Below are positions 17,899 through 64,000 of a DNA stretch of 64,000 nucleotides, one piece after another. Position numbers and translations under genes: made by a program. The number at the start of each line of letters is the position of its first letter. The stretch's first letter is position 1. The stretch spans positions 53,446,001 through 53,510,000 of the forward strand of contig OZ076409.1 in assembly GCA_964187785.1 (NCBI GenBank), read 5' to 3'. The notes under the pieces are model-generated. The model was not told the origin of the DNA. It saw only the letters and a program-made list of their open reading frames with translations, and did no database searches. The DNA is from Amphiscolops sp. MND2022 (lineage: Eukaryota).

Positions 17899-18004
17899 GA
17901 GGATGGCATCCCAATAATTTGACAAAAATTTGGAAATATTCATGACGAAAGTCCTTTCTGATCTGAAAACAGGTTCAAGCATTTATCTATTAGGAGATCC
18001 GGGC

Positions 18005-41093: not shown

Positions 41094-44000
41094 TGTAACG
41101 TCAGGCAAGGGACGTTGCAGAAGTTTTTGAAAATTTCGATCAAAAATTCGAAAAGTGCGGTATCAAACAAGCACATTCAAGATGGCTGACCCGGCAAGTA
41201 CGAAAACCGTAGAGGAAGCAAAAAAAGGCAAAAGCAGACCCACCCCCGACCCAAGAACGTGAATGTCCTAGATGTCATCACCCAGAAGGCGAGAGAATAA
41301 GAATTGTGCCATCTGACAGCAAAAAGACAGGGTTTCGGCAGAAAAATGCCAAATGAGACCATTGTGCCCTGAAGATGAGGAATGATGCCAGAGGCCAGAC
41401 TGACGACCAACCCTGAACTGTAATGTTATTGGGGCTTATCCCCGTGTTTTGTCACCGTTTACAGAGTATTTGGATGATGTTTGATCTACTAGATCTTCAT
41501 TTTATTCCTTATTCCCAAAAAATAATGTATTTCAGTTAAATAACTTTTTGGACCTCGGAGGTATGTAGGAGTCGCGTGAACACGCTAGAAACCTTAGGAC
41601 TCGTTTTTACAGGCTTGTCGGGCGTGTCCGGATTTTGAGAGTGCCGGCGCGTTGCCTCGGAGCTCTAACTAGAGGAGCCTCCTTTGACGAAAGAAAAGGC
41701 TCCCTAGGAGACTATTTTGGGAACAAAAACGGGTTTTTAGGGATGTAGTAAGACAACGGTCTCCTGTTTAAGCACCCTAGGCTATTTCCCTCTTCCTAGA
41801 TGTGCGCCGCCAGCCGGACGTTACATCTTGAATAGTTTTTATGGCGACCACAGAGGGATCTTCTTCTTTTTCACGTCCAACTAGGAGCAACTCCTGCTTT
41901 CCGGCCCCGGAGGGTCCAGATCTAGGAAGACTTACGGGAAAGTCCTAGATTATTTTTATTGCCTCTTTTGAGCCCACTAGGCTATCTTCTAGCTGAATTC
42001 TTGCGTTTCTTTGTATTTCCGAGGTCTGGAATGAGAAATGACTGATTTTCGGCAAAGTACCGTTTTGACACCGTTTATCGAGAAAATTACCCACTGGGTA
42101 TTCCGATTGTTTTTGAAAAATTATAGCGAGTTAGCTATAACACCTGATAAAGCTCGATTTTCAACTTGGTTAGTCTCAAAAGCCAAAATTTTTCAGAAGA
42201 GGGTACGGCCAATGGGAATACGATAAAAGCGTTCCAATAGACCTGTTAGGTCAGGAACAGGAAAAATTGTTCGGCTAAAGTGTTGAAACATTGAAAAATT
42301 TAGCGATTTTTGTTGAAAAAACATCAACTTTGACATAAAAGACCAAAATTGGTGAGCGCGAAGCCTCGGGCATTTGTTCCCAAGCTCTTAGATTAGCCCA
42401 AAAACATTTTTCCCGAGCTTGGTAGTATGAAGCACTACTGCCAAGACATTTTGTAGCATCCCCCAATGAAAATTGAAACTCAAACTTTTGATTTTCTTTG
42501 ATATGCATAGACCGGCGAAAAGGACCCCATAGACCTGAGAGTTATAACATTAAAAATAACCATTGAAACAACACCAGTCAATTGAATAAAGTTATTACAT
42601 CTTATTATGTTGTGTTTAGAACTATCCCGAACATCTGGGAACCGGGAAATAAAAAGTTCCTAGGGAGAATACGTATTTTTGACATTGTTCCCAGAGTGTA
42701 AAAGGTGTAACTTGAAAACATTTTGAGAGACCTTTTTTGGAACCTGCAAAGTTTTGCTCGCCTATTTTTTGTTAGTATAAAGTTTACCGTTGCTAACGCA
42801 GAAAACCGCGAGTAATTTCGAACAGTGGTTGCAGAAAAATAGTCAAAAATGTGTTTTTTTCCCGACGTTTTGGGAATTCGGCAACCACGTTTTTTTGACA
42901 TGTCGAAATCTCTCCTAGTAGGAAAAGCCAAAAACGGATTGCACCATCGTGTAGAACGCAAACGGTTACGCTAGTAGCGTGATTTTGATGGCGCTACTGT
43001 CAATACTCGTGGAAAAACCTTAGCCGCAGTTTTGCTCAGAAAGTGCACTAAATTGCCGAAAAAACGGAATTTTAGTTGAGCCCAGTGCGATATCCCCAAA
43101 GTATCCCAGCACATAATTTCGCATATTGTCGAGGACATGGTACCAAATCACGACAATTTGTGCAGTTTGAGCAGCCAGTGGCCAGCCAAAGCCGAGAAAT
43201 TGACATTTTTGTGTATTTTGACTCAAAAAAGTGGTACCTCAGGTACATCAAGGTTTTGTCACACCGAATCGCCAGGTGTTGATCCAGGCACCTTGCCGCC
43301 GTATCTTTCTGTTACATGGGCAAAATTTACGCTCGCATACAAAACCTCAGGTAGCTAGGACGCCTAGAAGACGAGTTTGACCAACTTTTGTGAATTTCAC
43401 GACAGAGTCAATTTTTCAGTGAACATTGTTAAGTGAACGTAACACTCACAGAGTCGTTTATGGCGCAATTGGAGGTTAAATCCCCACAATTCAATTAGTT
43501 TAGTAAACAGTGTGAAACTTTCAGGTCGCTAGCAGCGCTAGAACTGAATTTCATTTTCCCCGGAGGTGCCTGTTCACAAAAAAAAATGCTGCTTTTGCAA
43601 TTTTGTGAGACAAAGCGCACACTTTTTGTCAGTGTACGTGCCAGTGAGGGCCCAAACGACATCGAAAGTATAACAGGCACTCTAAACACGTCCTGTCCTG
43701 TTGGACTGCTTCGATTAATGCTAAACTGACCCTAAGATCGCGGGTCTCTGAGAAAATGGTCTACGAGACATAGATGTGAAAAACCAAAAATCGAAATTCG
43801 CCACCTGAATGCTATCAAAGTCACCTAAGTGCAAGTTATCCGTTGTGAACACGCTTGCTTGGTGCCCTGTGTACCCTGTGGGTGCTGGAGCTTGTTTATA
43901 GGCACTTTTAGATGTTCAGTCTTTGAACGCAGTGCTTCTCAAAACAGAAGAACAAGTACAGTAGTGACAACCATAGTTGAAAAGGAACGCTTTTTCTGAT

Positions 44001-45907
44001 CGTACTACAATCGTAATGCAAGAAAGCCTTTCAAACTCAGTGTCCTTCCTCTTACTCACCCCCAAGGCATATTCCGAGTCTCTGGTCACTTTTACGTTCT
44101 TACTTGTGCTCTCCAGAGACAGGGCAGCATGTGTGACAAACGGACTTTTCAGACAATCTAGCATCTGTAGCTAAGCAGGCTTCTCAAAAAATCAGTGTTC
44201 GTTGCTCGATTCATGCGTGAGGTGTACCTCGGTTCGCGGTACCACAGTTGTGTAAACCATGTCGATTTGAAAACACGGAACAAGAAATTGGCCGGGGAGT
44301 ACCCGTACTCTCCCGAGAGAAATCAACACCAATCATGATGAAACACCTAGAGCTTCGAAGCTCTTAGAACTGCTTCGGCAGCGGAAGTGCTTCTAAAACT
44401 CGAGTGAGTGCTCTGGAACTTGTTTTTTTATGATTATGTCAAAGACTGTTTTATGATATAAAATGCCTGATTTTAAACTTTTATTGGTTCTGCTCTATCA
44501 TCGCTATTGACATTGTCATCCTCTTGAGAAGCAGTTTATTTCCATCTCTTGCGAATACACTGGTGATTGTACTACCTAGACGATACTTTCATCAGAACGT
44601 ACACTGTTGACACAATAGACTGAATGGGTCCTCACGTTTTTTGGTGATATTTTAAATTTTGAGCTCTGTTTCCCCATTGGTGATATTTTTGTGCAGTTTC
44701 TGTTGGCCATGAACCACGACCCTTTTGCAAGACCACAGCTGTTACTTTTTTCGCTTTCCAAGTTGTATCGTGCATTTTGTAAAACCTAACCTATCAGGTG
44801 GGCACCCGGCCAATGCCAAATCTGTTCTGATGAGTGCTTTTTATAGTTATCCAGATTCGGTAACACAAAGTGATAGTAATTTTGGTGCGAAATTAAACGT
44901 TTGAAAGCGTTTTGAGAACAATGCTAAGTGTCTATGTCTAAAGTTGCTAATATTATTCCAGTGCTAGGACTCAGTGGGTGTGGAATCCAAGGAAGCCTGC
45001 TAGGCTTGCAAAAACTCATGTTTTCGGGCAGTAACATGTTTTTGGGCAATGACTTCCATTTAGATTCCTGACGTACCATGTTCCAGCAGTATCACCGGAT
45101 CACTGGATGGTGGCAGCCAAGATGTGAACGTCTTCTCTCGTTTGTCAAGGACGACAAACTACGGCCCGGGCAAGATGTAACGTCAGGCAAGGGGCGTTGC
45201 AGAAGTTTTTGAAAATTTCGATCAGAAATTCGAAATGTGCGGTATCAAACAAGCACATTCAAGATGGCCGACCCGGCAAGTACGAAAACCGCAGAGGAAG
45301 CAAAAAAAGGCAAATGCAGACCCACCCCGACCCAAGAACGTGAATGTCCTAGATGTCATCACGCAGAAGGCGAGAGAATTAGGAATTGTGCCATCTGACA
45401 GCAAAAAGACAGGGTTTCGGCAGAAAAATGCCAAATGAGACCATTGTGCCCCGAAGATGAGGAATGATGCCAGAGGCCAGACTGACGACCAACCCTGAAC
45501 TGTAATGTTATTGGGGCTTATCCCCGTGTTTTGTCACCGTTTACAGAGTATTTGGATGATGTTTGATCTACTAGATCTTCATTTTATTCCTTATTCCCAA
45601 AAAATAATGTATTTCAGTTAAATACCTTTTTGGACCTCGGAGGTATGTAGGAGTCGCGGGAACACGCTAGAAACTTTAGGATTCGTTTTTACAGGCTTGT
45701 CGGGCGTGTCCGGATTTTGAGAGTGCCGGTGCGTTGCCTCGGAGCTCTAACTAGAGGAGCCTCCTCTGACGAAAGAAAAGGCTCCCTAGGAGACCATTTT
45801 GGGAACAAAAACTAGTGTTTAGGGATGTAGTAAGACAACGGTCTCCTGTTCAAGCACCCCAGGCATTTTCCCTCTTCCTAGATGTGCGCCGCTAGCCGGA
45901 CGTTCCA
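41094..45907 (+). mobile_element. Non-coding (LARD-like) LTR element of the 3-bp-TSD group
   Basis: 732-bp LTRs 41094-41825 and 45176-45907 (about 3-4% different by eye); TSD GTA (41091-41093, 45908-45910); PBS TGGCGACCACAGAGGGATC at 41842; interior colinear with 59562-~62200; no retroelement ORF. Confidence 0.93.
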
Positions 45908-46068
45908 GTAACTGGAATTGGCGGAAAAATAGTGAATATGCGCGAAGGCAACAGAAATCTTCGTTGCTTTTTGAAGTTTATTCCAAGTTATTGCAAGTAA
46001 CAACAAATGCCACTGAGACAAAAACGATACCAAAACAAACAAACGTTCCAAAAATTGCGGTCTCGAGT

Positions 46069-46532
46069 CAAGGCTGGCAGTTATTCACGTGTAATTTGCG
46101 TGTAATCGTTTGATTGGTTAATTCCGTGACGCGCTGCATGTGATTGATCAACTTGTTCGATGAAGCGCGTGTGATTGGTCAATTTGTTCACTCAAAAATC
46201 AAGAAGTTTCGAAACAAATTTGAATGCGAATGAAATTGAAATAAAGAACTTTGAAAATGAGTTTTGGCGAATGTTGAGCGAGTAATTTCGCACTTCAACA
46301 ATGTTCTGTCAGACGACAGGCGATCTTCTGATGAAGAAAATTAAGAACAAACGTTGTTTTCATACTCTAACGTCGAAAAATTATAAGTTTGTGTTTTGTT
46401 TTCTCCGTGAAATAGTGAAATAGCCGTGTAATCAAGTTAATTCCGTGAAAATGAGCGTGTAAATGCTTTAAAAATTCCGTGAAATAGCGCGTGTAATTTT
46501 AGATATTTTTCCGTGAAATACTGTCAGCCTTG
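46069..46532. mobile_element. hAT-family MITE
   Basis: TIR CAAGGCTG(G/A)CAGT; 8-bp TSD TCTCGAGT (46061-46068, 46533-46540); subterminal CCGTGAAA repeats. Confidence 0.92.
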
Positions 46533-48148
46533 TCTCGAGTACGTGTATCATTCTTTTATGTGTTAGTTGGAAGACAACACGAAAAGTTGACAATCAAGAC
46601 TTCAAAGCTTTTCTGGTAGCCTAAACAGCTGCTACAATTTAAAAACGCTGCTTAGGCTGCAGTTCGCGACTCTTGGATTGATTTTTGTCACTTTTGATAG
46701 GTTTTCTTTCGAAGTTTTCAGCAAGATCGGACAAGGTCCTTACAAATTTTCATCAAGGTTTTCACACAGAAGCGAGTTAGATTCTTGCCAAGGTTTCAAC
46801 GGATTTTCACACTGGGTCAATTTCATTATGCGTATTATGACTGGTTCAAATAGAGGCGGAACAACTCAACGCGAACATTGCGGAAGCACATGTGAATGTA
46901 CAAAAGGGTCGCTTTTGAGTGGGGTGTTTTTGTAGTGGGCGCCTTTTGTCCAAGTTGCTTTTGTCTGTATACGCTTCACTGAAACCAGTGATACACAGTC
47001 TGATTTGGTAACATCACGCTCACTGAGCGCTGCAAAGGTTTCAAAATTGAACTATTTTACATGGTTTGCGAAAACATGGTTTGCGGGCTTAAGTATACCA
47101 CCAAAACTACTGATTTTCCACGGTAAGTTCGAAAACTTTCACACTTCCTACCTGTTTCAGGGCAATTTTATGCACTTTTTTCCAACAAACCTTCTAAATT
47201 GTTCAATGTATGATACTTAACAAGCCGAGAAATGCGCGTTAAAAGGGGGACCTGTAACGGCTGCTTGCCCTTATCCTGCGCTGAGGCTTGACAAGCTTTA
47301 CGCCGCCCTGATCCGTTGCTTAGTGCTGTGGACCGTCACTAAACAATTCCTGGTTTTCTTGTTTAAAGGACTGTATCTTTTGACTGGTGGGTCCGATGTG
47401 ACCCGCGGAATCTCCTGCAATTCCGCTTTGCACTGAATTGGATCCGATGTGATCCTGCACACACTTCCCTCACTGTATCTTCACGCGCTCCGGCTCTCCA
47501 ACTATGAGAGTAGCTACTTAGTCGCTCTGACTCTAGCGAAAAGTTGTGAAGGTTGAGAAGTAGATTAATTAGTCTCGCGGTCCTGAGACCCAACTTGACT
47601 ATAGCTATTCAGTGGAGAAAATCTCTATCTAATAATGGTATACATATGGTTTACAATTCTACAGTAAATATAAGCAAATATCAGTTGAAATATGTTGTAT
47701 AAATAAATGACATTTAAAGCTTAAAATGAAGTTATTGACTAAGTAAACAAAGAATGTGGTGGTTTTGGCATGTTGGTTAGGTGGGTTAGGAAGTATGTTT
47801 ACACAATGTAAATATCATTAATTTCAACAGAGATGATTTTCCTTCAAGGCCATATGAGAAAATCACATAATAATTAATATATCAAAATTGGGATTTCAGG
47901 GGGTCCGACCTAGGTCACTTTGGGTGTTAATTGCTCGGAACCCAGGGGAGATACGGGGTAGGTTGTTAAGAGTGAAAAGTTAGTGTATCACCACCACTAT
48001 ATGCGTGCCAAGTTTCAAGGTGATTGAATCAGTGGTTTTCCGGGACGGGGGGTGGTGTTTTTTTACATAGGGTCATTTTTGCTTAGACTTGTATTTTTCC
48101 ATCTAAAATCTTGATAAGCTTTCTAAGTGTTTTGAGTTGTAAGTTTCA

Positions 48149-51100
48149 TCAGTCACGTTCGAATTTGAGTTTCTGATCTCGCAATTGACTGGCGCCAACA
48201 TTGCCGGCCCTGTTTTTCTCCTGAAAAACACTTTCGTAGAACATGGGTGCCAGTTTCACTGCTGGTCGTTTCAATTTTCCATCTTCAGTTTTCACCAGCG
48301 CTGATCTCACTCGCCCATCGCTTCCATGGTAGACTTCCAACACTCTACTCATCTTGTAGAGTGCTCTTTTTACATTCTCATCCACTATCCAAACCAAATC
48401 ATTGACTTCTAGTTGTCTAACTTCTTCGTTTTTCCATTTTCCAAAGAATTCAAGTTGCATCATCATTTCTTCCCGTGATACAGCCGGCCCTATGAAAGGC
48501 CCACTTTCCGAACTTGTTGTTGTTTGTGCTTTTGAAGAACCCAATCGCGTTTCCATTAGCGATATTTCATCTGCAAATTCATCTATCACAATCTTTGCAT
48601 ATAGGATGCCAGTTGTATTCAACTGAGCGCTTTCGTTCCTTCCATGTAATCGAATTGAGATAGGTTCAAACTTCCAAGCTCGTTTCTCGAATTGCTTGCT
48701 CTGGCCAGTGCTCAGTTGAGTGTGCACATTAGGGTTAGCTTGTGCCACTGCATCCATTCCTGAGTTTCCATTACCTAACCAGTTGTTACAATTTTCACTG
48801 TCGCTTGGAATAATTTTGTCCAGCAGATTTTCTTTCAGCTCAACATCATGTTTTCTCCAAAATGACATCTTTACGGCTTTTGTTCCATCACTTGCGTTGT
48901 CTTTAGACGGTTGGTTGTGTTCCAACAAATCACTGGAGTGTCTTTGATAAATCGGTTTTCCTCTTGAATCATCATGAAGTTCAATTTGACACTCCTTCAC
49001 GAATCCAACAACTTTTTCCAATTGAGAACACTTTCTTCCCTCTTCCAGTGTTAAGGTGTTGACAGCAAGCTTCACGGCTTGCATTTGAGTTGGTTGCTTT
49101 TCTTTCACATGCTGTCGTACAGAGGCTACATTCATATTCTCTTTCAGCAAATCAAGCTTCACAATAAATTCTTCCAAGGTTCGGATGTTTGATTTAATTG
49201 CAAAACTTTCATGTCCATTATTTTCTTCTGTAAATGAGAAACCCATATTTTTGTCTTGTTTGACTACCACATGGTCACCCACAGCTAGGTGCATATCGTC
49301 TTGCCAAATTTGCTTGATTTCCAAGTGGAGGGATTTAGTACTGACGTCCTGCCAGTTTCTTTCTACAACGAATATGTTTGGTGAGTTCTCAGAATATTCC
49401 TTGGACATTTCGGATACGCTGCAGTGGGAAGTATACGATTCCATGCCCCACCGAGTTTTCATCTGATCCATCAATGGATCCACATCTGCAAAAACCAAAC
49501 TTTCATTGTCGAGCTTCGCAGTTTCTTGGTGAGGCAAGGGTCCACTAAGCATCCACCCCAATTTTGTCAGTACGGCCCAAGGTTTTGACTTTCCACATTT
49601 TCTATACCCAATGGCTCTATGCAAGTGGTAACAATCTTGTCCCAAGATGACTTTTACATCTTTCAGGTTGATGGTAGAATCTTTCAGCACTGACAGGTGT
49701 GGATATTCTTCCTTCAATTTCTTGAGGTTGTACGTTCGATTTCCTGCATTTACGTCGGGATGACTATAGGCCATGATATCTTCTTTGACTTTTCCTTGTT
49801 GATCGCCAATCCTTACCCTTAGTCGTTTGCTACTAATATCTGACGCACCATGAATCCCTGCAACATTCAAATCCACTGGCTGTCCCATCAGATTTAGCGC
49901 TTTCATCAGGCTCTCGTCCACAAAGGACAGGCTTGCTCCAGGGTCGCACAAAGCGAACGTTTTCACAGTTTTGCTCCCACTCCCTATCGATACTGGAATG
50001 ACTGGAAGCACTCCACTGCTTCTCATTGAGGACAGGTTAGAGACCTCATCAATATTTTCAACATTTTGCTTCTGGTCCTCGTTCTTGTAAGGTCGGTGTA
50101 GCAATCGGTGATGAGGTTTTCCGCAACCATTGACGTCGCAGAGTCTACCAGAGCAATTTCTCATCTGATGTGCGTCTGACAAGCATTTGAAGCACAGCTT
50201 CAGTTCTTTCGCCTTTTGTCCTCTTTCTTCGACGTTCATCTTCTTGAATTTCTCACATTTCCATATCGGATGTTTGCCATCTTTCAACGCACACTCTCGC
50301 TGGTATTTTGAGTTGTCACTGGCTGTGTCTGGTGCTGATGTTGCAAACGTAGAACCTTCGGCCTTTTCCTTGTAGCTCGTCTTTGCGCGATCAGCATTTA
50401 GATTCGAATACAATAGCAATTCATCTTGAACATCTGCTATATCATTGAGCCACTCACTGAGCACAGCGAGTCCCGGTTGATACAGGTTCATTTGCTTCAC
50501 ATAAGTGAGCCACTTCGTTTTCATGTCCAGTGTTAACTTCCTTGTGGCACTGCCCAGAACTCCTTCTGAGTTTAGGTCTCCCACGTAGTTGAATTGTGTC
50601 AAAACATTCACGCAACTCGACACTATTCTCGCAAACTTGATCAATGCGGCTCCATCATAAGGTTTCATCGGTGGAAAGGAGTAAATTCTCTTTAGTTGAG
50701 CATTCACAACCATTTGAGGTTTTCCAAAGTTTCGAACTAGAACGTTCCACGCCACATTGTACATCTCCGCGGTGTACCCAAGGCCAGCAATCGCCTCTTT
50801 GGCTTTGCCCGTGACCATTGTTTTCAGGTGATTCATCTTTACACTGTCGTCCATGTTTGCTGCGTGGACGGTTGCTTGAAACAGTTGTGACCACTCTGGC
50901 CACTCCAATGGGTCACCTGAAAACTCTGCCAGTTTCAATTTTGGCAAGCTGGATCTGATGAAATAGTCATCTCTCGCATTTGACACTATGTTATGCCCTT
51001 GACGAGGCAGATACGGCTTCTGCGTGTTCTCAAGCTGTGGCACTTGAAATGCACCACTCGGGATGCCTCCTGACGTAGGCGGTAACCCATTCTGGTCTGC

Positions 51101-52489
51101 CATAAGGGTCATAGACGGCTTCGTCGAGGCGAACTTCACTTCTGGTTGTGCTGTTACTCTTTGACTGTCATCACGTATGACAGTCTTTGTTCCGTCCTTT
51201 CCAATATCTCGCACAGCGGCTTCTGTGGACATGACCGGTTTCAATGAGGACTTCAAGTCCCTCACTTGCGCGGAGCGTTGTCCTCCTTGCATCGATTGTC
51301 CTGTAGTCACTGGTGCTGAGACGGACGTTTGCTGGTATACAGATGGCACGTTAATCGGCGATGCCACGTTTTCAGCTTCTTCGGTCTTGTCCATCCAATC
51401 TGAGACTTTCGTCAGATTGTCGTCTGGAGTCTCGACTGGTGAGATGCTTCTCAAGCTAGAACCACGACTGCTCGACACTTTCGCTCTTTCTATTTCCTTT
51501 TCAGCTATTCTAGCTTTGCGAGCCAACTCTTCTTGCAGGTCAGCTATCTCCTTTTGTTTCAGTTCCGTCAGGCGAGCTTGCAGTTTTTCTTGCTCTTTCA
51601 AAGCTTTTATCTCTAGATCAAGAACTCGTCTTGCACTTGATGTTTTTGAAATCACAGACGTTTTGTTGCTTTTGGCTCTTTCACTTCGCGAATGTATGCT
51701 CAATTCTTCTATTGGCAATGATCTAGCTCCATTTCTTGGCTCTTGGCTGTCTTCCGCGTTGTGACTATCACGTTCCTTTTGCTCATCGTCTGGTTGCAGC
51801 TCCTTTTGTGGTGATGTGCCATTTTTACTTGATTTGTCTGCGGCTACGCTTGCGCGAACGTCTGCTAGTCTTTGTTCGGCGTCTTCAAGACTTCGCAAAA
51901 TGGCTCCAGTTTCTCCTGACTTCAGGAGAGCTTCAATTTTCAGTTTGAGGTCAGACCTCTCTTGAAGCAATTCCTGACATGCTACTGCATAATCTTCTTC
52001 GGCGTCCTCGCCGTTTTCAATTCGTTCGTCGCGCAACTTTTCGTTGTGGGCAATTCTTTCATCAATAGCACGTTTCTTCTCTTCAAGATCCAAATAGTTT
52101 AGTATATGATTTTCATCTTGCAATGCTGACATCAGTATTATCACCCTTACAGTGTTAGAGTCTTGTCGCTGCAACTCCACAAATCGGCTCTTCATCGCTT
52201 GGATCACTGTTGAGAACATTTCGGGTATCTGGGGTTGGTACTTGATTTTGATTGCATTTTGGATTGCCTTAAAGAGTCGTTCTCGCCTTTTTATGACAAC
52301 TATTCGTCGTAACAGTAGCTCTGCTATCTGTTTGTTGTCATCATTCCTAGCTAGGTTTTCATCAATTGCTCTGATCGTCTTGCCGTGCTCGCAAGCTGCA
52401 TTCCAATGACTCACAATTTGGGCCGCGTCTGCAGAGTTCTTCAGAAAGTTTTCAACTTTGTTGATATCAAACCGTTTTGGTTGAGCCAT
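48149..52489 (-). CDS. Intact 1446-aa BEL/Pao Gag-protease ORF fused to the BEL integrase C-terminal (DUF5641-like) domain
   Basis: LPKLKLAEFSGDPLEWPEW (DUF1759-like), triple Cys/His knuckles, ALCDPGAS protease, TKLGWMLSGP, C-terminal KW..LEVNDLVWIVD..GSDGRVRSALVKT..KRPAVKLAP; ORF ends inside the 3' LTR. Confidence 0.92.
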   Translation of the reverse strand: MAQPKRFDINKVENFLKNSADAAQIVSHWNAACEHGKTIRAIDENLARNDDNKQIAELLLRRIVVIKRRERLFKAIQNAIKIKYQPQIPEMFSTVIQAMKSRFVELQRQDSNTVRVIILMSALQDENHILNYLDLEEKKRAIDERIAHNEKLRDERIENGEDAEEDYAVACQELLQERSDLKLKIEALLKSGETGAILRSLEDAEQRLADVRASVAADKSSKNGTSPQKELQPDDEQKERDSHNAEDSQEPRNGARSLPIEELSIHSRSERAKSNKTSVISKTSSARRVLDLEIKALKEQEKLQARLTELKQKEIADLQEELARKARIAEKEIERAKVSSSRGSSLRSISPVETPDDNLTKVSDWMDKTEEAENVASPINVPSVYQQTSVSAPVTTGQSMQGGQRSAQVRDLKSSLKPVMSTEAAVRDIGKDGTKTVIRDDSQRVTAQPEVKFASTKPSMTLMADQNGLPPTSGGIPSGAFQVPQLENTQKPYLPRQGHNIVSNARDDYFIRSSLPKLKLAEFSGDPLEWPEWSQLFQATVHAANMDDSVKMNHLKTMVTGKAKEAIAGLGYTAEMYNVAWNVLVRNFGKPQMVVNAQLKRIYSFPPMKPYDGAALIKFARIVSSCVNVLTQFNYVGDLNSEGVLGSATRKLTLDMKTKWLTYVKQMNLYQPGLAVLSEWLNDIADVQDELLLYSNLNADRAKTSYKEKAEGSTFATSAPDTASDNSKYQRECALKDGKHPIWKCEKFKKMNVEERGQKAKELKLCFKCLSDAHQMRNCSGRLCDVNGCGKPHHRLLHRPYKNEDQKQNVENIDEVSNLSSMRSSGVLPVIPVSIGSGSKTVKTFALCDPGASLSFVDESLMKALNLMGQPVDLNVAGIHGASDISSKRLRVRIGDQQGKVKEDIMAYSHPDVNAGNRTYNLKKLKEEYPHLSVLKDSTINLKDVKVILGQDCYHLHRAIGYRKCGKSKPWAVLTKLGWMLSGPLPHQETAKLDNESLVFADVDPLMDQMKTRWGMESYTSHCSVSEMSKEYSENSPNIFVVERNWQDVSTKSLHLEIKQIWQDDMHLAVGDHVVVKQDKNMGFSFTEENNGHESFAIKSNIRTLEEFIVKLDLLKENMNVASVRQHVKEKQPTQMQAVKLAVNTLTLEEGRKCSQLEKVVGFVKECQIELHDDSRGKPIYQRHSSDLLEHNQPSKDNASDGTKAVKMSFWRKHDVELKENLLDKIIPSDSENCNNWLGNGNSGMDAVAQANPNVHTQLSTGQSKQFEKRAWKFEPISIRLHGRNESAQLNTTGILYAKIVIDEFADEISLMETRLGSSKAQTTTSSESGPFIGPAVSREEMMMQLEFFGKWKNEEVRQLEVNDLVWIVDENVKRALYKMSRVLEVYHGSDGRVRSALVKTEDGKLKRPAVKLAPMFYESVFQEKNRAGNVGASQLRDQKLKFERD

Positions 52490-52524
52490 TTCTTCTCTTC
52501 TTGATTGAACTCAGTTCCCAAAGT

Positions 52525-52740
52525 CACAATAGCCCAAACTCCCAGAGACACAATAGCCCAATCTCCCAGAGACACAGTAGCCGAATCTCCCAGAGACACA
52601 ATAGCCCAATCTCCCAGAGACACAGTAGCCCAATCTCCCAGAGACACAATAGCCCAATCTCCCAGAGACACAGTAGCCCAATCTCCCAGAGACACAATAG
52701 CCCAATCTCCCAGAGACACAGTAGCCCAATCTCCCAGAGA
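52525..52740. repeat. 24-bp tandem array x9 in the BEL 5' UTR
   Basis: CACA(A/G)TAGCCCAATCTCCCAGAGA x9; A/G alternates from unit 2 onward. Confidence 0.97.
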
Positions 52741-53843
52741 CACAAAATCAGCAACTCCAAGTTCCAGACACTTGTTCTTCTTGGGCAATCTTCTCAGTTG
52801 TCCACCAACGAGTCGTCTTCTTCTAGTCCGGGTCGTCCACCAACGAGTTGTCCGGGTCGGCGGACCAACGAGCGTCCGGGTCGGCGGACCAAATGTAACG
52901 GCTGCTTGCCCTTATCCTGCGCTGAGGCTTGACAAGCTTTACGCCGCCCTGATCCGTTGCTTAGTGCTGTGGACCGTCACTAAACAATTCCTGGTTTTCT
53001 TGTTTAAAGGACTGTATCTTTTGACTGGTGGGTCCGATGTGACCCGCGGAATCTCCTGCAATTCCGCTTTGCACTGAATTGGATCCGATGTGATCCTGCA
53101 CACACTTCCCTCACTGTATCTTCACGCGCTCCGGCTCTCCAACTATGAGAGTAGCTACTTAGTCGCTCTGACTCTAGCGAAAAGTTGTGAAGATTGAGAA
53201 GTAGATTAATTAGTCTCGCGGTCCTGAGACCCAACTTGACTATAGCTATTCAGTGGAGAAAATCTCTATCTAATAATGGTATACATATGGTTTACAATTC
53301 TACAGTAAATATAAGCAAATATCAGTTGAAATATGTTGTATAAATAAATGACATTTAAAGCTTAAAATGAAGTTATTGACTAAGTAAACAAAGAATGTGG
53401 TGGTTTTGGCATGTTGGTTAGGTGGGTTAGGAGGTATGTTTACACAATGTAAAAATCATTAATTTCAACAGAGATGAATTTCCTTCAAGGTCATATGAGA
53501 AAATCACATAATAATTAATATATCAAAATTGGGATTTCAGGGGGTTCGACCTAGGTCACTTTGGGTGTTAATTGCTCGGAACCCAGGGGAGATACGGGGT
53601 AGGTTGTTAAGAGTGAAAAGTTAGTGTATCACCACCACTATATGTGTGCCAAGTTTCAAGGTGATTGAATCAGTGGTTTTCCGGGACGGGGGGGTGGTGT
53701 TTTTTTACATAGGGTCATTTTTTGCTTAGACTTGTATTTTTCCATCTAAAATCTTGATAAATTTTCTAAGTGTTTTGAGTTGTAAGTTTCATCAGTCACG
53801 TTCGAATTTGAGTTTCTGATCTCGCAATTGACTGGCGCCAACA

Positions 53844-55092: not shown

Positions 55093-56236
55093 TTATCTTC
55101 CATCATAGTAATAAGGCATTAAAGATGTTAGAGCACCAAGGTTGATAATTAAAAACAGAAAAGCGAACAATCGATCTACACATCGAAGAATAAAGAACCA
55201 AACTTCTCGATTAACTTCTGCCATGGTGTCACTGGATAATGTACGAAACAAAATGGCTTCCAGAAGGACCAAACTTTCAGCTAATTCTCCAATCTTTCGC
55301 TCCAAGATTTTGTCTCCCTCATCTTGCGTAGTAGCTTCACAAGTAGTTTCGGTCAAATTGTTTATGGTACTTTTTGGTCTATTTTCAAACATTTCGGTTA
55401 TTACGTGATCCAGTTTTGGGCACTCCAAAAACAAGAATGGAGAAATTGTTTCACAGAACTTGAACACGCATTTTTGGAAGGTTTCATTGAAAAGATAAAA
55501 TAATGAAGAGTTTCCTAGACTCAGAGTTGTCACGGAGATACAAAGGGATAGACAAACGGCGAAGATGGAGAAGAGACAGTACTTGCTGATTACCGGTAGT
55601 TGCATAGAGTTGACGGGTACAAATTGGCTGATGCAGAGAATATTGAAAGCTTGGGCCACGAAAACTGTCACTGATAGTCCTACTTTTTCTTGACATCCGT
55701 GTGGAAGAAAGAAGACCAGGATTGACAGAATTCTGATAACAAGATACTGAATTTCAGTTTTTAGAAAACTGGGATTCAACAAGCATGGAAAAATAATCGC
55801 AATGCACCAAAACAGTTTCAGCAGATCTTTTTTGATTTTTCAGCTCATGCATTTATAGTCAAGGGAATTAAAAATCACCCTGAAATTTCAATAGGAGGTA
55901 CTTCAAAATCAAGCGTTATGAGTACTTGGGCTAAAAACGTTTCGAGAGAAAAACATTTTCTGCAAACCCTTATCATCTATGCAAATTATAAACAACCCGT
56001 CAACAATTAGGAAGTATTGGAGAATTTAAATATTCAGTATGTATGTGTAAGCACTTACGATATGAGAACAGTAGGAAGAATGATGACTCGTGTGTAGAAA
56101 CCTGATCTCCGCACCAGCGTGAGTGTGTATCTCACTTCAGAAAATACTAGAGTCGTATCTTGGCGTCTAGTCGTGTTCAACACTCGGTTTTCGCAATCCA
56201 CTGTTCTAAGTATCCATTCCGAGTTGGGCGTGAATT
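55093..56236 (-). CDS. Nicotinic acetylcholine receptor-like (cation-type Cys-loop) subunit, non-alpha; last two exons
   Basis: Exons 56236-56059 (FTPNSEW..FSEVRYTLTLVRRSGFYTRVIILPTVLIS) and 55732-55093 (LVFFLP..EKVGLSVTV, VP.NS..LPVISKY, W..ILRCVDRLF); phase-2 GT-AG intron; upstream exons not found in the window. Confidence 0.9.
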
Positions 56237-56361
56237 CTTGAAAATAAAATATTGATATTGAAATTAGGACTTTTCAATTTTAAAGTAGTTAATTTAATTA
56301 CGCTAAAAGCATTAATGATAGTTATTTAGATCATAACAATTTTTCGTTGTTATATACAACA

Positions 56362-57233: not shown

Positions 57234-57297
57234 CACGGTTCAAGGACCGTTTTCATTGCCGTATTAACATTTGAAAAGGAGAAATTCATTCACATTT

Positions 57298-57561
57298 ACG
57301 ATTAGAAAACAACGTGGTAACCCTCAGAACTTTTGAAGCCTCCCGGGATTCTAATTCAAGAGTGTAAGGACTTACAATAGTGTAAGAAATAAATTGAACC
57401 TTTAATGTAAAAAACGAATTGGACCCAAACAAAACTAGCTCTGATTTCTGCTATCATCAAAGGTATTTGAAAATCAAACAAACAAACATTCTAAAGTTTT
57501 GTTGGGCTCTTGAAATGTAGGTTAACCAAATTCTGAGGGTTACCACATTGACTTCTATTCG
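57298..57561. mobile_element. MITE with ~30-bp TIRs
   Basis: caacgtggtaaccctcagaa / ttctgagggttaccacattg inverted pair; no TSD identified. Confidence 0.6.
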
Positions 57562-57715
57562 TTGACTTCTATTCTATTAACTCTACCACGTTGACTTCTA
57601 TTCTATTTGCAAATTTGCAAATAATGAATAAACTTCCTAATTTCATTTTTCATTGATTGTATTTACTACTGAATTGGCATGTGGGACATCATTTTAGACA
57701 ATTTTGCAACACTTG

Positions 57716-58280
57716 TGTGATAATCCTCTCCTGTGTGGTCCTAATTCATGACCGCAGAGTCAATTAAATCGGTGTTTTGTATATTCAAAGGCTGCATCGG
57801 CGTTCCAAGTTCACTCATGTTCGATGGCCTGAAAAGATTATCCTGTATTTCGTTTTCTTGATCTTCTGGTTCAGATGCGTTTGCTTCATCGTTTCTGCTA
57901 TTTGTGTTTTTTGAGCTTCCTACTTAATGGGTGTTTTGCTCTTGATATCTTCTACTTGGCACAGATTGTTCTCTCCTGCTATTTTTCATCTCTTTCAACA
58001 TTTTCTCGAATTTTTCATTCATTTCTTTCCTCAGGTCTGATACTTCCTTATTTGTTTTTCCAGTTATTCTTTGTGTCCATACTTGTATTTCGTCATGGTT
58101 CTGCGAACCACTTGCAAATGCTGTTTCTCCTTTCCTAACCGAACAAACATTACCAAAATTACTAAAAGTTTCAATATTAGTTTCATTACATTGTGATGTT
58201 CCTACTTCAGGTGCGCTCAATTCTCTCTCAAATGAGGGTGATTGTGCTTGTCTGGATCTTCTTTTTCTTTTATTTCCCAT
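57716..58280 (-). pseudogene. Gag-like N-terminal remnant ending at TATCACA (possible solo LTR that contains the gag start)
   Basis: MGNKRKRRSR..LRKEMNEKFEKMLKEMK..DHTGEDYH, with coding character ending at a CA dinucleotide. Confidence 0.5.
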
Positions 58281-58823
58281 CTCAGTTAGGTGAAAATGTT
58301 GATTGTTGGAGAGAAGAATTTTAATTAGGTTTAAAGATGAAATAAGACAGAGTTGAATATAGGGTTGAAGAAGATGTACATAACATCAAATTATCAAGAT
58401 CAGACAAAGATTGAGAAGTGAGAAAATGAGTCTGAACAGTTCAGTGGTTTTTTTCTGGAATGAATTTTTATGGGCTCTTAGCTCTCCTTTTCTTTGGGTC
58501 TAATTTTAGCAACATGTCAACCATTTCTTGTAGTGTCATGCTTACATCATAAACACGTAATAACCAAAATTAGCGCCCCATTTATTAATTTAGGACAAAA
58601 ATAGGTTTAAATATTACGTCAACCTTATAAATATTTTCTTATATGACAAGTGTTATCCTGCATTCTGATTGGCTATCGATCTCAGCGTATTAACGGTACC
58701 AATCTGTGCGACGGTAATGAAATTCGTAGTAGCATGTAGTATGAGTCATACTTAGCACAAGTATTAACTTCAGCATAATACTGCACATGCAATTAGATCG
58801 ATATCATGAGTCATATTTCTAAA

Positions 58824-61800
58824 TGTAACGTCCAGCAAAAGTCGTTATATCAATTTTTGAAAATTTCGTTCAAATTCAAAAAGTGTGCGATATCAAATAA
58901 GAGCATTCAAAATGGCTGACCTAGCAGGTCCCCAAAAAAAGGACAAAAAAGAGCCGAAAAAAGCCCGAGAACCCCGAAAAAACCTTGAAATCCCAGAGGA
59001 CAGTGCCAGAGACCCCAGAAGAACTGAGAACTGCCACAAAAACGCGGTTTTGTGCCATCTATCCCAGAAAATGACCCAGAAGAAAGAAGTATCTTTTCGA
59101 AGGTTGCCCAAAGAACCCTGAAGACTGGATACAAACCCCGAATGTGATAAATTCAGTTTATTTAGATGTTTTTGATGTTGTTTAGCAGATTTGCGATGAT
59201 AGTGGATCTACTAGATCCCTATTTTGGTGGATTTAGAACTTATTCCCCCAATAAAATGTGTTTCAGCTAGACCCTGTTTTTGGACCTCGGAGGTATGTAG
59301 GAACACGCAGGAACATTAGGAATTGTTTTTACAGGCTTGTGGGACGTGTCCGGACTTGGAGTGTGCCGGCACGTCGCCACGGAGCTCTAATATGAGGAGT
59401 CTCCACGGCGTTTTGGAAAAGTCCCTACTGAGACCATTTTGGGACTAAAAACTGATGTTTAGGTTGTAGTAAGGCACTGGTCTCTTGTTCAAGCAACCTG
59501 GGCATTGTCCCAGTTCTAGAATGTAGCTGTTAGCTTGACGTTACATCTAGGATAGTTTTTATGGCGCCCCACAAGGGACCTTTTCCATCTTTTCGCCATA
59601 ATTAGGAGTTTTTCCTGCTTTCCGGCCCTGTTAGGTCCGGACCTAGGAGATTTGCTGGTGAGTCCTAGATTGTTTTTATTGCCTTATTCTAGCCCTGTGG
59701 GCCTTGTACTAGTGTTTTTCCTGCGTTTCCTGCGTATTTCCGAGGTCTGGAACCGAAAATCGACGATTTCAGACGGTGTACCCCTTGTATTTTGAGAATA
59801 CCTATTGAAAAAGTGAATCCGGCCTATCCGGAACTGGTTTTAAAGGGTTTTGTAGCTCTATTTCAGTAAATTGGCAATGTATGGGGACCAGGAGGACGGT
59901 TCGTGAAGGCCCCAGCTAGCTGAGTGACAGACGTCAGGTACTTCACGTCATAGCCTCTACCTCCCTCCCTGCTGCCGATTCTACGACGATAGCTGGGTTA
60001 TTTCGTTCCCCTTGTATTTAGCAGCCCAAACAGCATTTTCCCAGGCCTATTCCCACATAAACTAACTGAGAAAAATACCCAGCGGGTGTTCGGACCGGTT
60101 TTTAAAAAAAATTTGAGTGCGAAAACCTTGAAAATAACACTCTATATAGCTCAAATATCGATTTTACAGTTTTAAAAAGTCAAAATTTTGTAGAACTGTG
60201 TACGGCCAGTGGGAATACGATAAAAACGTTCCATCAGACCTGGTAGGTCAGGAACAGAAAAATTTGTTTGGCTAAATTACTGAAACATCAAAAAATTTAG
60301 CGATTTTTATTGAGAAAACATCAAATTTGGCCAAAAATACCAAATTTGGTGAGGGCGAAGCCTTGGGCGCTTGTTCCCAAGCTTTTAGACCGCCCCAAAA
60401 ACGTTGTTCCCGAGCTTGGTGGTACGAGACATTACTGCCAAGACAATTTTTAGCAGCCCCCAATATAAATTAAAACTTTAACCCCTGATTTTCTTTTGTT
60501 ATACATAGACCTGAGTAGAGGACCCCATAGACCTGAGAGTTATAACATCAAAAGTAATAATTGAAAGAACCCCAGTCCCCTAAATAAAGTAGTTACACCT
60601 TCCTACTGTACTATTAAAATCATCCCGAACCTCTGGGAACCGAAGAATAAAAAGTTCCTAGGGAAAATACGTGTTTTTCATAAGTGTTCCCAGAGTGTCA
60701 AAGGTGTAACTTAAAGTCAATTTTGAGAGACCTTATTTGGAACCTGCCAGGTTTCGCTTGCCTATTTTCTATTAATATAGAGCATAACGTTGCCAGCGCA
60801 GAAAACCGCGAGTGATTCCAACCAGTAGTTGTCGAGATATAGCCAAAAACGTGTTATTTTTGCGACATTATCGGAACACTGGAGTAGTGTCCCCAAGACA
60901 GGTCGAAATCTCTCCTAGCAGGAGTAACCCAAAACGGATTGCACCATCGTGTAGACCGCAAAAAGTTACATTAGTGGTGTAAATTTCGTAGCGCTACCAT
61001 TACTAGTGATTGAGAAATCTTAGCCGCAGTTTTGCTCGAAAATCGTATGAAAATGTCGAAAAAACCGAATTTTAGTTGAGCATAGTGCAATACCTTGCAG
61101 GTATCCCAGCACTAAAATTCTTGCATTTTCGTATATACGGCGCTAGATCCCGACGATTTGTGCATTTTGAGCAGCTTGCTACTGTCCAACTTGGAGAAAT
61201 TGACAATTTTGTGAATTTTGACCCCTGAAAGTGACATATAGGGTACATCATAGTTTTGTCGACTCGGATTGCGGAATATTGACCTGGGCACCCTGCTAAC
61301 TTATTTTTCTGTTACGTGGGCATAATTCACGCCCGCATACAAAATTTCAGGTAGCTAGGAAGCCTAGAAGGCGAGTTTGACAGACTTGTGTGAATTTCAC
61401 AACATTGTAAAATTTTGCAATAACATTGGTGAGCGACCCTGAGTCACGAGGAAACAAATTTGGCGCAATCGGCGGTTAGTTTCCCACGATTTAGCCACTG
61501 TAGTATACCGTGTTAAATTTTCAGGTCGCTACTAGCCCTAGAAGTGATTTCCACCATCCCCAGGCGTGCACTTTGGTGAAAAAATTGCCGATTTTGAGGA
61601 ATTTTGCGAAAATTCGCATAATTTTCGTAAGTGTAGTTGCGAGTGAGGGCTCAAAAGACCCTAATTCTACACCAGGCACCCATAGCACGTCCTGCCGAGG
61701 CAATCAGTATAGGGCTAGCTCAACCCTAAGATCTTGGGTTCGTGGAAAAATTGTCTACGAGACTTAGAAGTGAAAAACCACAGAATCGTGTTTTCTCTAC

Positions 61801-64000
61801 CAACAGCCACCAGAGTCACCTAAGTGCGAACTGATAGTTATTGCCGCGCACACTTCGACTGAGAGGCAGCGTGTGAGAGCCAGAACGCATTTAAGAGTTT
61901 CCTAGGAGACTAAGACTTTGGACGCGCTGCGTCTCGCAAAAGAACATCAAGTACAGTAGCATCTGAAAGTGTGAAGAACTGTGTTTCCATTGATTGTGCT
62001 ACGATCAGATTAGTACAACTCTCTTGTTGGCTAGTGTCCTAGCACCTACTCACCCTCAAGGTCTATTCCCTGAGTTCCCTTTTTGTAGTAACCCTACTTG
62101 TGCTCTCCTCATAAAGGGCAGTGCGAGTGACATAGAGTGCGCTCACAGAATAAAGTGCGGAGATTTCTTGAATAAATCTCCATAAAGCTCTGTTAGCGTG
62201 CCAAAATCTTTCTGTTCATTCCAACCGCATAGCCTGTGGCTGGATAAAGCGTAGTTTAGTGTGAGTAACCTCTAATAGTACTTCAAAAAAAAAAACAAAA
62301 AAAAAACTTAAAAGACTCATCTTTAACTTTTCGTAGGATAACTATCTCCAGTTAGTGGGGTAGCAAACCTTTCTGTTCTGATTAGTGGTGACTAGCACCA
62401 GTGCATGTAATCTGAAGATTGTAGTTTGCAGGCCAACTTCATTCTACGTAGAACCTAGTAGGCAATTGCGAGCTGCAAGCTCAAGAACGTAGTGGTCCCA
62501 TAGTTTAGTTTAAACCATAGTGAGGAAGCACATTAAAAACTTCCTATTTTTATTTGTCTTGCGCTTGACTTTGCACAAAGAAGGATAGGGTGAGTAATGA
62601 AAAAAGCCAAAGCCCTGTTCAAAAGCTGGGTTACCAGAGGAAACAGTAGTCAGAGCAGTCCATCGAGCATGAAATCAGGCGAGATTGAGTATCTGAAGTC
62701 TTTGAATGAGTCGAACAGGCAGTCTAGTGGCTTCCACGCTACGAATCCATTTGCAAGCGATGTGGAGGAGTTATCTAGGCTTAGTGCACGTGCTGAGATA
62801 GCAGCGGATGACATGATTGCAAACATGTTTTTATACGACGTCATGTCGGATAATGTGTCCATCGCTGATCAAAACTCGCAAATGGCATACTTCAGCCAAC
62901 TAAACCACTCTCGGGCATCTTCCGATAGCGCTAACTTTGTAAATGGCACTGCCATGAACTGTGGTAACGTCTGGCCTCCCATGAACAACTCTGCGATTGA
63001 TTGGGGAGATTGGCCAAATTCGAATGGAGAACAAGCTAAAAGCTCGGACATCAGTAAATGGGTAGAGAACATGAATGCAGGCACGGCCTTCGGAGAGATT
63101 ACACCACAAATGAGTCTGGATGTGGACCCGCTGGGTTCCGGAGTTCCTGTGTTTGCTGCTAGTAGAAACGCCGTTGCTAACAAGACGGAAGGGTACATCA
63201 ATCAGGACAAAACGGAAACCTCAATCACATCAGTCAAGAGTTTAACTGAAAAGCTCATATCGGAAATGACTGCGATAATGGCGCAAAGAGATCAACAAGC
63301 CGATGAACGACTGACGCTCATTTCCGAAACTATGCATCGCAGAGACTTAGATGTCGACAAGCGCATGGTGGACCTCATGACTACAGTTCAAGAGTTGACC
63401 CTAGGGGTAAAAGCTGTAGTGGCGACGATACCAAGTCGTCCTTCACCTGTGCCGGTGGCACTAAATCCTGCGAACGCACCATCTGATAATGCATCTTCAA
63501 TTCAGCAACCCACCAATAGAGAAATAGTTCAGCGCCAGAGCAGGACGAAGCTCGACCAAAGAAACTTGAATCCAGAGACAGTAGAAGAGGCTGCAAAAGG
63601 CAATACACCGAACACAATACATGGGCAAATGTTAGCCGAAGCGATAACAACCGCGATGTCCAAAGGTTTGGAACCATTGCTAGCAGCAAAAGAAGCCAAA
63701 AATACACCAACCAAATACCGCGGTACGCGCGACGGGATAATAGATGGTTGGCTAATGCTCATGAAACGTTATCTGGAAAAAGCCCACTCAAAGGATACTT
63801 CGCTGGACAGAGCATGGACCATCGTGGAATTCTTAGAGAATGAGGCACAAGACTACATCATGAACAAATCCGAGGCTGAGCGCGACACGGATGAAAAAGT
63901 CTTTGCGCTACTAGCGCGTCGATTTGGAACCGGATCTAGTAAGTTCCAAATACAACAGCAGTTCCGTACACGCAATCAGTCCGACAACGAAGACTATATG
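58824..64000 (+). mobile_element. LTR retrotransposon of the same group as 41094-45907, 5' part (candidate autonomous member)
   Basis: 5' LTR 58824-59545 homologous to 41094-41825; 16-nt spacer; PBS TGGCGCCCCACAAGGGAC at 59562; ~3-kb leader; gag ORF runs off the window. Confidence 0.9.
62597..64000 (+). CDS. gag: Gag (open for 468 codons to the window end; absent from the ORF track because it has no stop)
   Basis: MKKAKALFKSW.. read by hand with no stop; capsid-like block PTKYRGTRDGIIDGWLMLMKRYL..IVEFLENEAQDYI..LLARRFG..QQFRTRNQSDNED. Confidence 0.88.
   Translation, partial: MKKAKALFKSWVTRGNSSQSSPSSMKSGEIEYLKSLNESNRQSSGFHATNPFASDVEELSRLSARAEIAADDMIANMFLYDVMSDNVSIADQNSQMAYFSQLNHSRASSDSANFVNGTAMNCGNVWPPMNNSAIDWGDWPNSNGEQAKSSDISKWVENMNAGTAFGEITPQMSLDVDPLGSGVPVFAASRNAVANKTEGYINQDKTETSITSVKSLTEKLISEMTAIMAQRDQQADERLTLISETMHRRDLDVDKRMVDLMTTVQELTLGVKAVVATIPSRPSPVPVALNPANAPSDNASSIQQPTNREIVQRQSRTKLDQRNLNPETVEEAAKGNTPNTIHGQMLAEAITTAMSKGLEPLLAAKEAKNTPTKYRGTRDGIIDGWLMLMKRYLEKAHSKDTSLDRAWTIVEFLENEAQDYIMNKSEAERDTDEKVFALLARRFGTGSSKFQIQQQFRTRNQSDNEDYM

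Follow-up and report, generated by a model that had tools for sequence, protein, structure and literature searches.

Introduction

Among the closest described systems are the periodic An/Tn clusters (PATCs) of C. elegans, which recur every ~10 bp and have their origin in Helitron minisatellites (PMC4947018; bioRxiv 10.64898/2026.08.08.743475). Resistance to silencing has been proposed for PATCs, and it has been speculated that active elements retain them (L1 ORF2) (bioRxiv 10.64898/2026.08.08.743475). Among long terminal repeat (LTR) retrotransposons, gypsy, ZAM, accord, and Tirant from Drosophila have 5′ untranslated regions (UTRs) with tandem repeats (PMC8872304). The barley elements BARE1 and BARE2 produce separate RNA pools, shown experimentally, from two TATA starts and by splicing (PMC3735527). 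Tandem units within the non-coding regions of LTR elements are known from retrotransposon-derived satellites (PMC7004042, PMC3648361). Here, we analyze the leader, the region between the 5′ LTR and the gag-pol gene, of LTR retrotransposons from Amphiscolops sp. MND2022. Three related elements (A, B, and C) were detected by self-comparison of a 64,000 nt stretch of contig OZ076409.1 (positions 53,446,001 to 53,510,000, plus strand), which is referred to as the window; all coordinates are window positions.

The leaders show two periodicities, of ~10 bp and 181 bp, and are depleted of AUG. The leader may be a PATC-like chromatin element which acts at the DNA level to space nucleosomes and which is also transcribed as a UTR, an interpretation for which we see about as much reason to believe as to doubt.

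As in PATCs, A/T tracts with a ~10 bp period extend over kilobases of non-coding DNA which is probably transcribed (as judged from the AUG depletion) and which seems to have arisen from tandem repeats of a mobile element that have since degenerated. Unlike PATCs, the tracts are clustered, a further period of nucleosome length is in fixed phase with the LTR, and AUG is purged. PATCs are found in host introns or a coding region, whereas the leader would be the 5′ UTR of a family of LTR retrotransposons that includes young copies; the main text of the PATC preprint does not contain the word "LTR" (bioRxiv 10.64898/2026.08.08.743475). With gypsy and ZAM, the leader shares the property of being a repeat-built DNA element in an LTR retrotransposon. 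However, the gypsy/ZAM repeats carry a recognizable 13 bp motif bound by host proteins while the degenerate units described here share composition and spacing, and the word "nucleosome" is absent from that paper (PMC8872304). Separate RNAs for translation and copying, as in BARE, would explain why AUGs occur in the first kilobase of C-lineage leaders and are nearly absent later; the second start would be positioned 0.7–1 kb downstream of the LTR and is postulated here, unlike that of BARE. Retrotransposon-derived satellites differ in that our elements have 1–3 motif copies per site (among the first 100 of 1659 matches). In the way it works, the leader resembles PATCs and repeat leaders of the ZAM type, yet it is neither by definition. 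We found no account of an LTR leader that has a period of nucleosome length or that is purged of AUG in a literature search which was partly blind for 5′ UTR-type terms and which did not extend to subscription journals, Repbase Reports, and preprint supplements (where the PATC cross-species repeat screen could bear on novelty).

Results and discussion

The features of the three elements are as follows.

41094..45907, plus strand: element A, LTRs 96% alike
41094..41825, plus strand: 5′ LTR of A, 732 bp, TG..CA ends, 3 bp target duplication GTA (41091–41093 / 45908–45910)
41826..44138, plus strand: leader of A, homologous to the B leader (72%–73%), with A/T-tract clusters and a peak period of 181
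41842..41858, plus strand: primer-binding site (PBS) of A, 16 nt past the LTR, complementary to the 3′ end of host tRNA-Arg(UCG)
42965..42983, plus strand: conserved hairpin, A copy, G-U-tolerant according to pairing counts across copies
45176..45907, plus strand: 3′ LTR of A, 96.3% identity to the 5′ LTR
58824..59545, plus strand: 5′ LTR of B, 722 bp, identical to the 3′ LTR (beyond the window), 3 bp target duplication AAA (58821–58823)
59546..62596, plus strand: leader of B, 3051 nt, variant PBS at 59562, 6 ATG and 47 CAT
60096..61945 (limits approximate), plus strand: phased array in the B leader, ~10 units of ~181 bp, each headed by a 60–70 bp cluster of 10-bp-phased A/T tracts
60965..60983, plus strand: conserved 8 bp hairpin, B copy, G-U-tolerant, the sole RNA-type structure with statistical support
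62597..64000 (extends past the window), plus strand: start of B gag-pol, a single frame of 2998 codons
30112..36346, minus strand: element C, 5′ and 3′ LTR 86% alike
35606..36346, minus strand: 5′ LTR of C, 3 bp target duplication TTC (30109–30111 / 36347–36349)
35574..35590, minus strand: PBS of C, same as that of A
32300..35605 (left limit approximate), minus strand: leader of C, an old copy of a sister lineage, with a ~724 bp module repeat, the 10 bp signal retained, and the 181 bp signal weaker (peak 244)
30112..30870, minus strand: 3′ LTR of C, 86% to the 5′ LTR

Further copies were fetched from the same genome by leader similarity and, separately, by the PBS alone. These belong to two lineages, A/B-like and C-like. 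The leader has a length of about 2.4, 2.7, 3.0, or 3.9–4.1 kb ahead of gag-pol and of 4.6–4.8 kb in a gene-less family. As long leaders occur across the fetched copies of both lineages, they are a family trait. In two other LTR elements from the window, the first frame opens within ~20 and ~420 nt of the LTR.

The leader has a 181 bp and a 10 bp period

Within the leaders, 6-mers are shared at spacings of 10–11, 21–22, 181, 362, and 722 nt. When a leader is set in rows of 181, an A/T-tract cluster of 60–70 nt heads most rows. The A/T-tract spectrum (our own and not the published PATC score) peaks at 179–188 bp in 15 of 16 leaders, with the old copy C being the exception, and the 181 bp peak exceeds all 60 shuffles in 14 of the 16. 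This did not occur for any of 10 chunks from open reading frames (ORFs), four of which peak weakly in the band, nor for any of 13 other chunks from the window. A comparable peak at ~181 was found in 1 of 49 flank chunks. When ORF chunks were compared to synonymous shuffles, two of nine exceeded all 40, so that the 181 bp signal is weak in the ORF. The power of AA/TT at 9.8–10.6 bp is 2.8–4.7 in leaders versus 1.3–1.4 in shuffles (six of six leaders exceed all 40); this short period peaks at 10.1–10.6 bp, not 11, and is strongest within the tract clusters. A pitch of ~10.2 bp and a unit of 181 bp (147 + 34) are the dimensions of nucleosomal DNA, not of single-stranded RNA, and for this reason we read the leader as a DNA element. 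An initial prediction, made from the window alone (referred to as the original prediction), had viewed the leader as a structured RNA; the strong signals in it, namely the two periodicities and the depletion of AUG, had gone unnoticed.

Measured from the end of the LTR, the 181 component has a phase of 23–49 nt in 15 of 16 spectral windows, which cover +748 to +2558 and represent four groups. The two lineages show no significant alignment in the first kilobase beyond the PBS and only remote homology later in the leader (E 1e-5 to 3e-7), where homologous blocks are offset by −3 or +178–183 nt in young copies. Tract clusters are phase-locked to the LTR end across lineages which have saturated synonymous sites.

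Internal duplications have a length of 180–182, 360–370, and 716–739 nt. While 7.5 of 65 duplication offsets would be expected within 10 nt of a multiple of 181, this was found for 43; exceptions, in single copies, are 200, 403, and 1180 nt. The leader grows by 181, 362, and 724 bp. Among the first 100 of 1659 motif matches, one motif is present 1–3 times with 180–181 nt spacing, and no long free satellite array was seen. No sequence motif common to every unit was seen; the recurring feature is tract composition.

The leader is purged of AUG

ATG is the rarest triplet in the B leader (6 vs. 40 expected, p 2e-11), with CAT being present 47 times. In the A leader, AUGs have been partly regained (23 vs. 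32 expected) and depletion is not significant. The depleted zones contain 25 ATG versus 164 CAT in four A/B leaders (11.0 kb) and 15 ATG versus 149 CAT in five C leaders (13.1 kb), which amounts to 40 versus 313, and depletion holds in all flanking contexts. It begins at about +750 in A/B-lineage leaders and at about +1000 in those of the C lineage, which have a normal ATG content over their first kilobase. Neither the LTRs nor the 3′ non-coding region of B is depleted (32 vs. 16). The density of ATG rises from 3.1 to 5.6–5.9 per kb in decayed copies, whereas that of CAT does not change. Loss of precisely this triplet, on one strand, is expected under scanning initiation, and it points to the leader being transcribed. 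Because AUGs are purged kilobases upstream, a scanned 5′ UTR is favored over an intron and also over the internal ribosome entry site (IRES) beside gag which had been postulated, the purge reaching up to 3 kb upstream of gag.

A cluster of TGACGTCA-like sites is found at 59915–59950 of the B leader (about +370 to +405) in the A/B lineage, within a stretch that is missing from A. We take these sites to be a candidate internal promoter.

Constraint on the leader and its retention in gene-less copies

In 11 within-lineage pairs, the divergence of the leader core is 0.07–0.28 versus 0.54–0.73 at fourfold-degenerate pol sites; in the same pairs, net length changes by 9 nt at most, with indels being few and balanced. 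In three closer pairs, leader and fourfold rates are similar (0.14–0.22 vs. 0.19–0.29). Rate heterogeneity is stronger in 15 subfamily representatives (alpha 0.87) than in decayed copies (1.6 and 2.7). The internal region of A has no match to the B polyprotein, and the same applies to 27 of 29 short copies. As had been predicted, the leader is retained in copies that lack gag-pol: among 14 short copies which were chosen by PBS alone, several of them kin, nearly the whole leader is kept in 10, part of it in three, and none in one.

A young gene-less family of the C lineage (L081:5604-6893; also L058, L060, L073, L083) has an AUG-poor leader of 4.6–4.8 kb, together with a frame that stays open for ~430 codons and contains three RGRPP motifs. 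That this frame codes for a selected protein was rejected due to a dN/dS near 1 (0.77–1.4); its openness, and not its protein sequence, seems to be kept. In old copies, CpG and other C/G sites mutate at like rates (0.031 vs. 0.036 and 0.034 vs. 0.035), which suggests that the elements are not CpG-methylated in the germline.

A model for leader function

We propose that the leader is an old, degenerate array of ~181 bp units which are counted from the LTR end. The cluster of 10-bp-phased A/T tracts that opens each unit would space a row of nucleosomes over the integrated element; 181 bp would correspond to the host nucleosome repeat, and the clusters would mark linkers or nucleosome edges. By analogy to PATCs, the chromatin state set by the leader may keep the element transcribed under host silencing. 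As this state would sustain transcription, gene-less copies would need the leader as well. In gag-pol mRNA, the leader would double as a 5′ UTR through which ribosomes scan; lying upstream of gag in the transcript, it would have to remain AUG-free, which would account for the purge. Translation would start no further downstream than the position from which AUGs are missing (about +750 in A/B, about +1000 in C). Most simply, it would use RNAs from a second start site inside the element, and the full-length RNA would be left for copying. In its broadest form, the model would imply that this LTR lineage carries its own chromatin template, consisting of 8–20 nucleosome-length tract units that are LTR-indexed, module-swapped, and AUG-purged, which shields it from silencing and helps to explain its thousands of copies. 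We put this forward tentatively, as a possibility toward which we are rather more skeptical than inclined.

Several observations speak against a nucleosome-spacing leader. Power at ~10 bp is found in LTRs too. As the leaders are related, the 65 duplication offsets stand for about six events, and deep replication of the pattern is limited to the two lineages. Leaders are mosaic (B vs. copy L093: 0.68–0.97 along the core); the variation of identity in blocks along the leader indicates that exchange between families contributes, so that low leader divergence results in part from exchange and not from selection. The evolutionary rate of tract positions is hardly below that of other positions (0.90 vs. 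1.01). Rare mutations, an indirect measure of phasing in vivo, show just a weak rhythm in 39 A-like old copies (p 0.048) and none at 181 bp in 29 B-like and 40 C-like old copies (p 0.26 and 0.13). Neither a conserved splice site nor a start site was located in the leaders. Leaders of the 2.4 kb group are only mildly AUG-poor overall (p 0.06–0.17 in four of five copies), and young A/B leaders retain 6–13 short upstream frames. Finally, PATCs have been reported to deplete nucleosomes and not to phase them (bioRxiv 10.64898/2026.08.08.743475).

The leader touches on two open questions: how far DNA sequence dictates nucleosome spacing, and how transposons escape silencing. Thousands of natural copies, which differ from each other by whole units and have their phase set by a common reference point, provide a direct test bed for sequence-encoded phasing, and the comparison of old with young copies is a built-in decay series. 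If the model is true, an AUG-free UTR of 1.5–3 kb would put ribosome scanning to an unusually severe natural test.

Other DNA-level explanations

The main rival is a mutation footprint which has been spread by recombination. In this case, a tandem-duplicated leader would lie under nucleosomes positioned downstream of the promoter, a mutation bias between linker and core together with nucleosome-sized duplications would have written the pattern, template switching would have spread it between families, and nothing except the AUG purge would be selected. The mosaic identity along leaders is as expected for such a history. Rare mutations in 39 old A-like copies have a weak rhythm (period 178, p 0.048), which is highest in the tract zone. 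A faint 10 bp signal occurs in flanking DNA (0.03 vs. 0.15 in leaders), and transcription-coupled mutation bias can generate 10 bp periodicity from minisatellites (bioRxiv 10.64898/2026.08.08.743475). A footprint does not, however, account well for a length that is held within a few nt over 1.4 kb at 15%–27% divergence, for a phase lock that persists between lineages without first-kilobase alignment beyond the PBS, for the retention of the leader upon loss of the genes, or for the weakness of the signal in the adjoining ORF. We consider this explanation unlikely.

Next comes an array of protein-binding sites (insulator or enhancer) similar to gypsy/ZAM, where the spacing would serve a bound host or element protein, possibly one in which the RGRP motifs of the element read the A/T tracts. 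Conserved spaced palindromes are strand-symmetric, and positions with predicted pairing are slightly more conserved on both strands (0.68 vs. 0.63). RGRP motifs are present in the tail of the B polyprotein and in 12 related proteins from databases; the ORF of the gene-less C-lineage family has three of them. The tandem repeats in the ZAM 5′ UTR act as an insulator, and a shared 13 bp motif binds RpL22 (PMC8872304). In the leader, only tract composition recurs, without a motif seen in every unit. The RGRP motifs may be AT-hooks, for which Pfam gave no match, and the dN/dS of 0.77–1.4 in the RGRP-bearing ORF does not favor a protein under selection. On balance, we regard a binding-site array as rather improbable.

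A large structured RNA is not supported

The original prediction had assumed a multi-domain structured RNA of 2.3–3 kb for packaging, dimerization, or IRES-like initiation. Its description of the locus proved to be partly accurate. The A and B leaders are colinear (72%–73% identity, offset 17,997–18,000 over 42178–43832), and all of the motifs that it named are in place (42966/60966, 42595/42702, 60591/60701, 42634/42687, 60632/60686, 43355/61355). The similarity stops at about 44,138 / 62,132, and ~270 nt of B (59,782–60,068) are missing from A. Because the leaders are no more alike than the LTRs (74%–78%), this identity alone shows only kinship. A credible ORF is indeed lacking, as there is no stop-free frame of at least 110 codons on either strand of the B leader and a single one, antisense with 121 codons, in A. 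The three blocks that were said to be kept in element C occur in the same order, although on the minus strand; with a profile from 60 copies, homology could be shown for TCGCTA..CTAGAA (E 2.4e-6) but not for GACTCCATAG and TACAGTAGCAT, which had no profile match.

For the analysis of covariation, 36 sequences with at least 97% identity were removed from 96 extracted cores, which resulted in an alignment of 60 sequences (1431 columns, tree length 5.3). Pairs were scored by a G-test with average-product correction and compared to 20 alignments simulated on the tree. None of six multi-copy alignments shows helix-level covariation. In the 60-copy core, two pairs exceed all nulls, both of which are non-canonical, and the best canonical pair has E 1.8; in two C-lineage alignments (48 and 56 sequences) the best canonical pairs have E 3.7 and 0.85. 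With simulated true pairs being detected 0.7%–6% of the time, 400 true pairs should have yielded 3–24 hits. Three alignments of the first 560–630 nt (73, 67, and 28 sequences) contain three canonical pairs at E ≤ 0.03, which might point to structure, but each has an equally strong non-canonical partner and no stacked neighbor, and the pairs bear the mark of inherited blocks. Because the power per pair is low, small hairpins in the leader, including a packaging signal, are possible.

The view that differences often preserve pairing was not borne out. After a single change between A and B, pairing with the unchanged partner persists in 29% of cases. Among 12 subfamily representatives, pairing is kept after a change in 33.9% on the sense strand (null 30.6%) and in 34.6% on the antisense strand (null 31.9%). 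Changed pairs show no bias for G-U versus A-C (0.51 vs. 0.49). Consensus-fold conservation in 22 alignment windows is low on both strands (sense 0–0.52, antisense 0.03–0.43), and under a block shuffle there are 68 conserved helices of at least 6 bp versus 53 ± 9 (sense) and 44 versus 37 ± 9 (antisense). With single-column shuffles as the reference, RNAalifold gave low z-scores for either strand; these scores and the single-column helix null were set aside because this null breaks neighbor composition. A scan of 41000–64000 against Rfam gave no match in the leaders and one sub-threshold match elsewhere.

In favor of structure are the retention of the leader in gene-less copies, seven conserved local stems of at least 7 bp on the sense strand (1.8 expected, p 0.015; five vs. 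1.1 also on the antisense strand), and the hairpin at 60966–60982, which was correctly recognized: all seven pairs are paired in 53–57 of 58–59 copies and are maintained through G-U intermediates. The nominal p for 60965–60983 is about 0.02, with thresholds chosen post hoc. CTAGG/CCTAG is paired in 55–57 of 60 copies. The stem TCTGGGAAC/GTTCCCAGA, which had been called invariant, is paired at two of its positions in just 39 and 35 of 60 copies. As a caution, hairpins which are chosen from two related copies seem compensatory by chance in ~30% per change. Given that a helical ~10 bp periodicity is a property of double-stranded DNA, and in view of the missing covariation, G-U bias, and Rfam match and of the low fold conservation alike on both strands, a large multi-domain RNA fold is very unlikely.

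A decayed protein gene or an intron is hardly credible: some copies contain scattered stop-free frames of 110–200 codons, a few of which recur at similar antisense positions in the C lineage, but B has no such frame, site rates lack a 3 nt periodicity (maximum 2.4 vs. a null threshold of 6.5), young families differ by one-base indels, and an AUG purge would be needless in an intron. A candidate splice acceptor (branch point plus AG near +1090) was discarded as not general, being present in only 4 of 12 C-lineage copies.

Family assignment

The gag-pol frame of B codes for protease, reverse transcriptase (RT), RNase H, and integrase (Pfam order), followed by a long C-terminal extension. By domain order and TG..CA ends, the elements are assigned to the Ty3/gypsy type, the RT is nearest to that of Ty3, and the best solved relative is Ty3 Gag-Pol (E 3e-108). 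The LTRs have termini TGTAAC..GTTACA and a length of 712–786 bp. Target duplications of 3 bp are present in 13 of 16 copies having both ends; of the others, one is ambiguous (poly-A), one has 4 bp, and one has none. Thus, the elements do not follow the rule of 4–6 bp target-site duplications given for Ty3/gypsy elements (PMC12440569), and LTR finders set to this range may miss TG..CA elements with 3 bp duplications. In the same paper, 3 bp duplications are treated as peculiar to Troyka, which has CG..CG ends, LTRs of 100–400 bp, an internal region of up to 7.7 kb, and no GPF/Y motif (PMC12440569). The elements described here have TG..CA ends, LTRs of about 710–790 bp, an internal region of 13.3 kb (in B), and a GPH variant of GPF/Y (WRGPH in the integrase tail of B). 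Membership in Troyka was rejected on account of the termini.

The pattern of LTR end, 12–22 nt, and PBS has 2832 exact matches in the 1.07 Gb genome while the reversed pattern has none. Among the matches listed, 15–18 nt separate the PBS from the end of the LTR, and subfamilies can be told apart by the sequence of this spacer (window positions 41826–41841, 59546–59561, and 35591–35605). The gap between LTR and PBS is usually a few nt. The PBS of A and C matches host tRNA-Arg(UCG), a pattern with 255 matches genome-wide; one guessed tRNA pattern had no match. Genes for this primer tRNA form a tandem array with 172–174 bp spacing (G000:C9:57537789-57576392; L177, L178). In B, the PBS is altered at 59562–59579 (TGGCGCCCCACAAGGGAC), and the alignment contains a minority group with linked changes at the same columns, which suggests a primer switch; we presume a likeness of this variant to tRNA-Lys.

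The B polyprotein extends ~750 residues beyond the integrase (L031:5400-7593), with an RGRP motif and a last domain which is macrodomain-like (an Atlas lead of high score) and has no Pfam or PDB match. In the protein collection, there is a family from another host with about 56% RT identity; its gag piece matches this genome at just 33%–37%. No relatives in other hosts were found in a metagenome scan. A head-to-tail run of C-lineage elements with ~14.04 kb spacing is located at G000:C1:34035024-34099402.

Neighboring features in the window

Two additional gypsy-type elements and one BEL/Pao-type element were detected (4879–10873, 18108–24077, and 47253–53843, all on the minus strand); the BEL/Pao-type element has 950 bp LTRs and a 24 bp tandem repeat in its short leader. 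Host exons at 38044–38499 (plus strand) and 55093–55839 (minus strand) match CMIP6 and a ligand-gated ion channel. A palindromic tandem repeat is found at 24589–24916.

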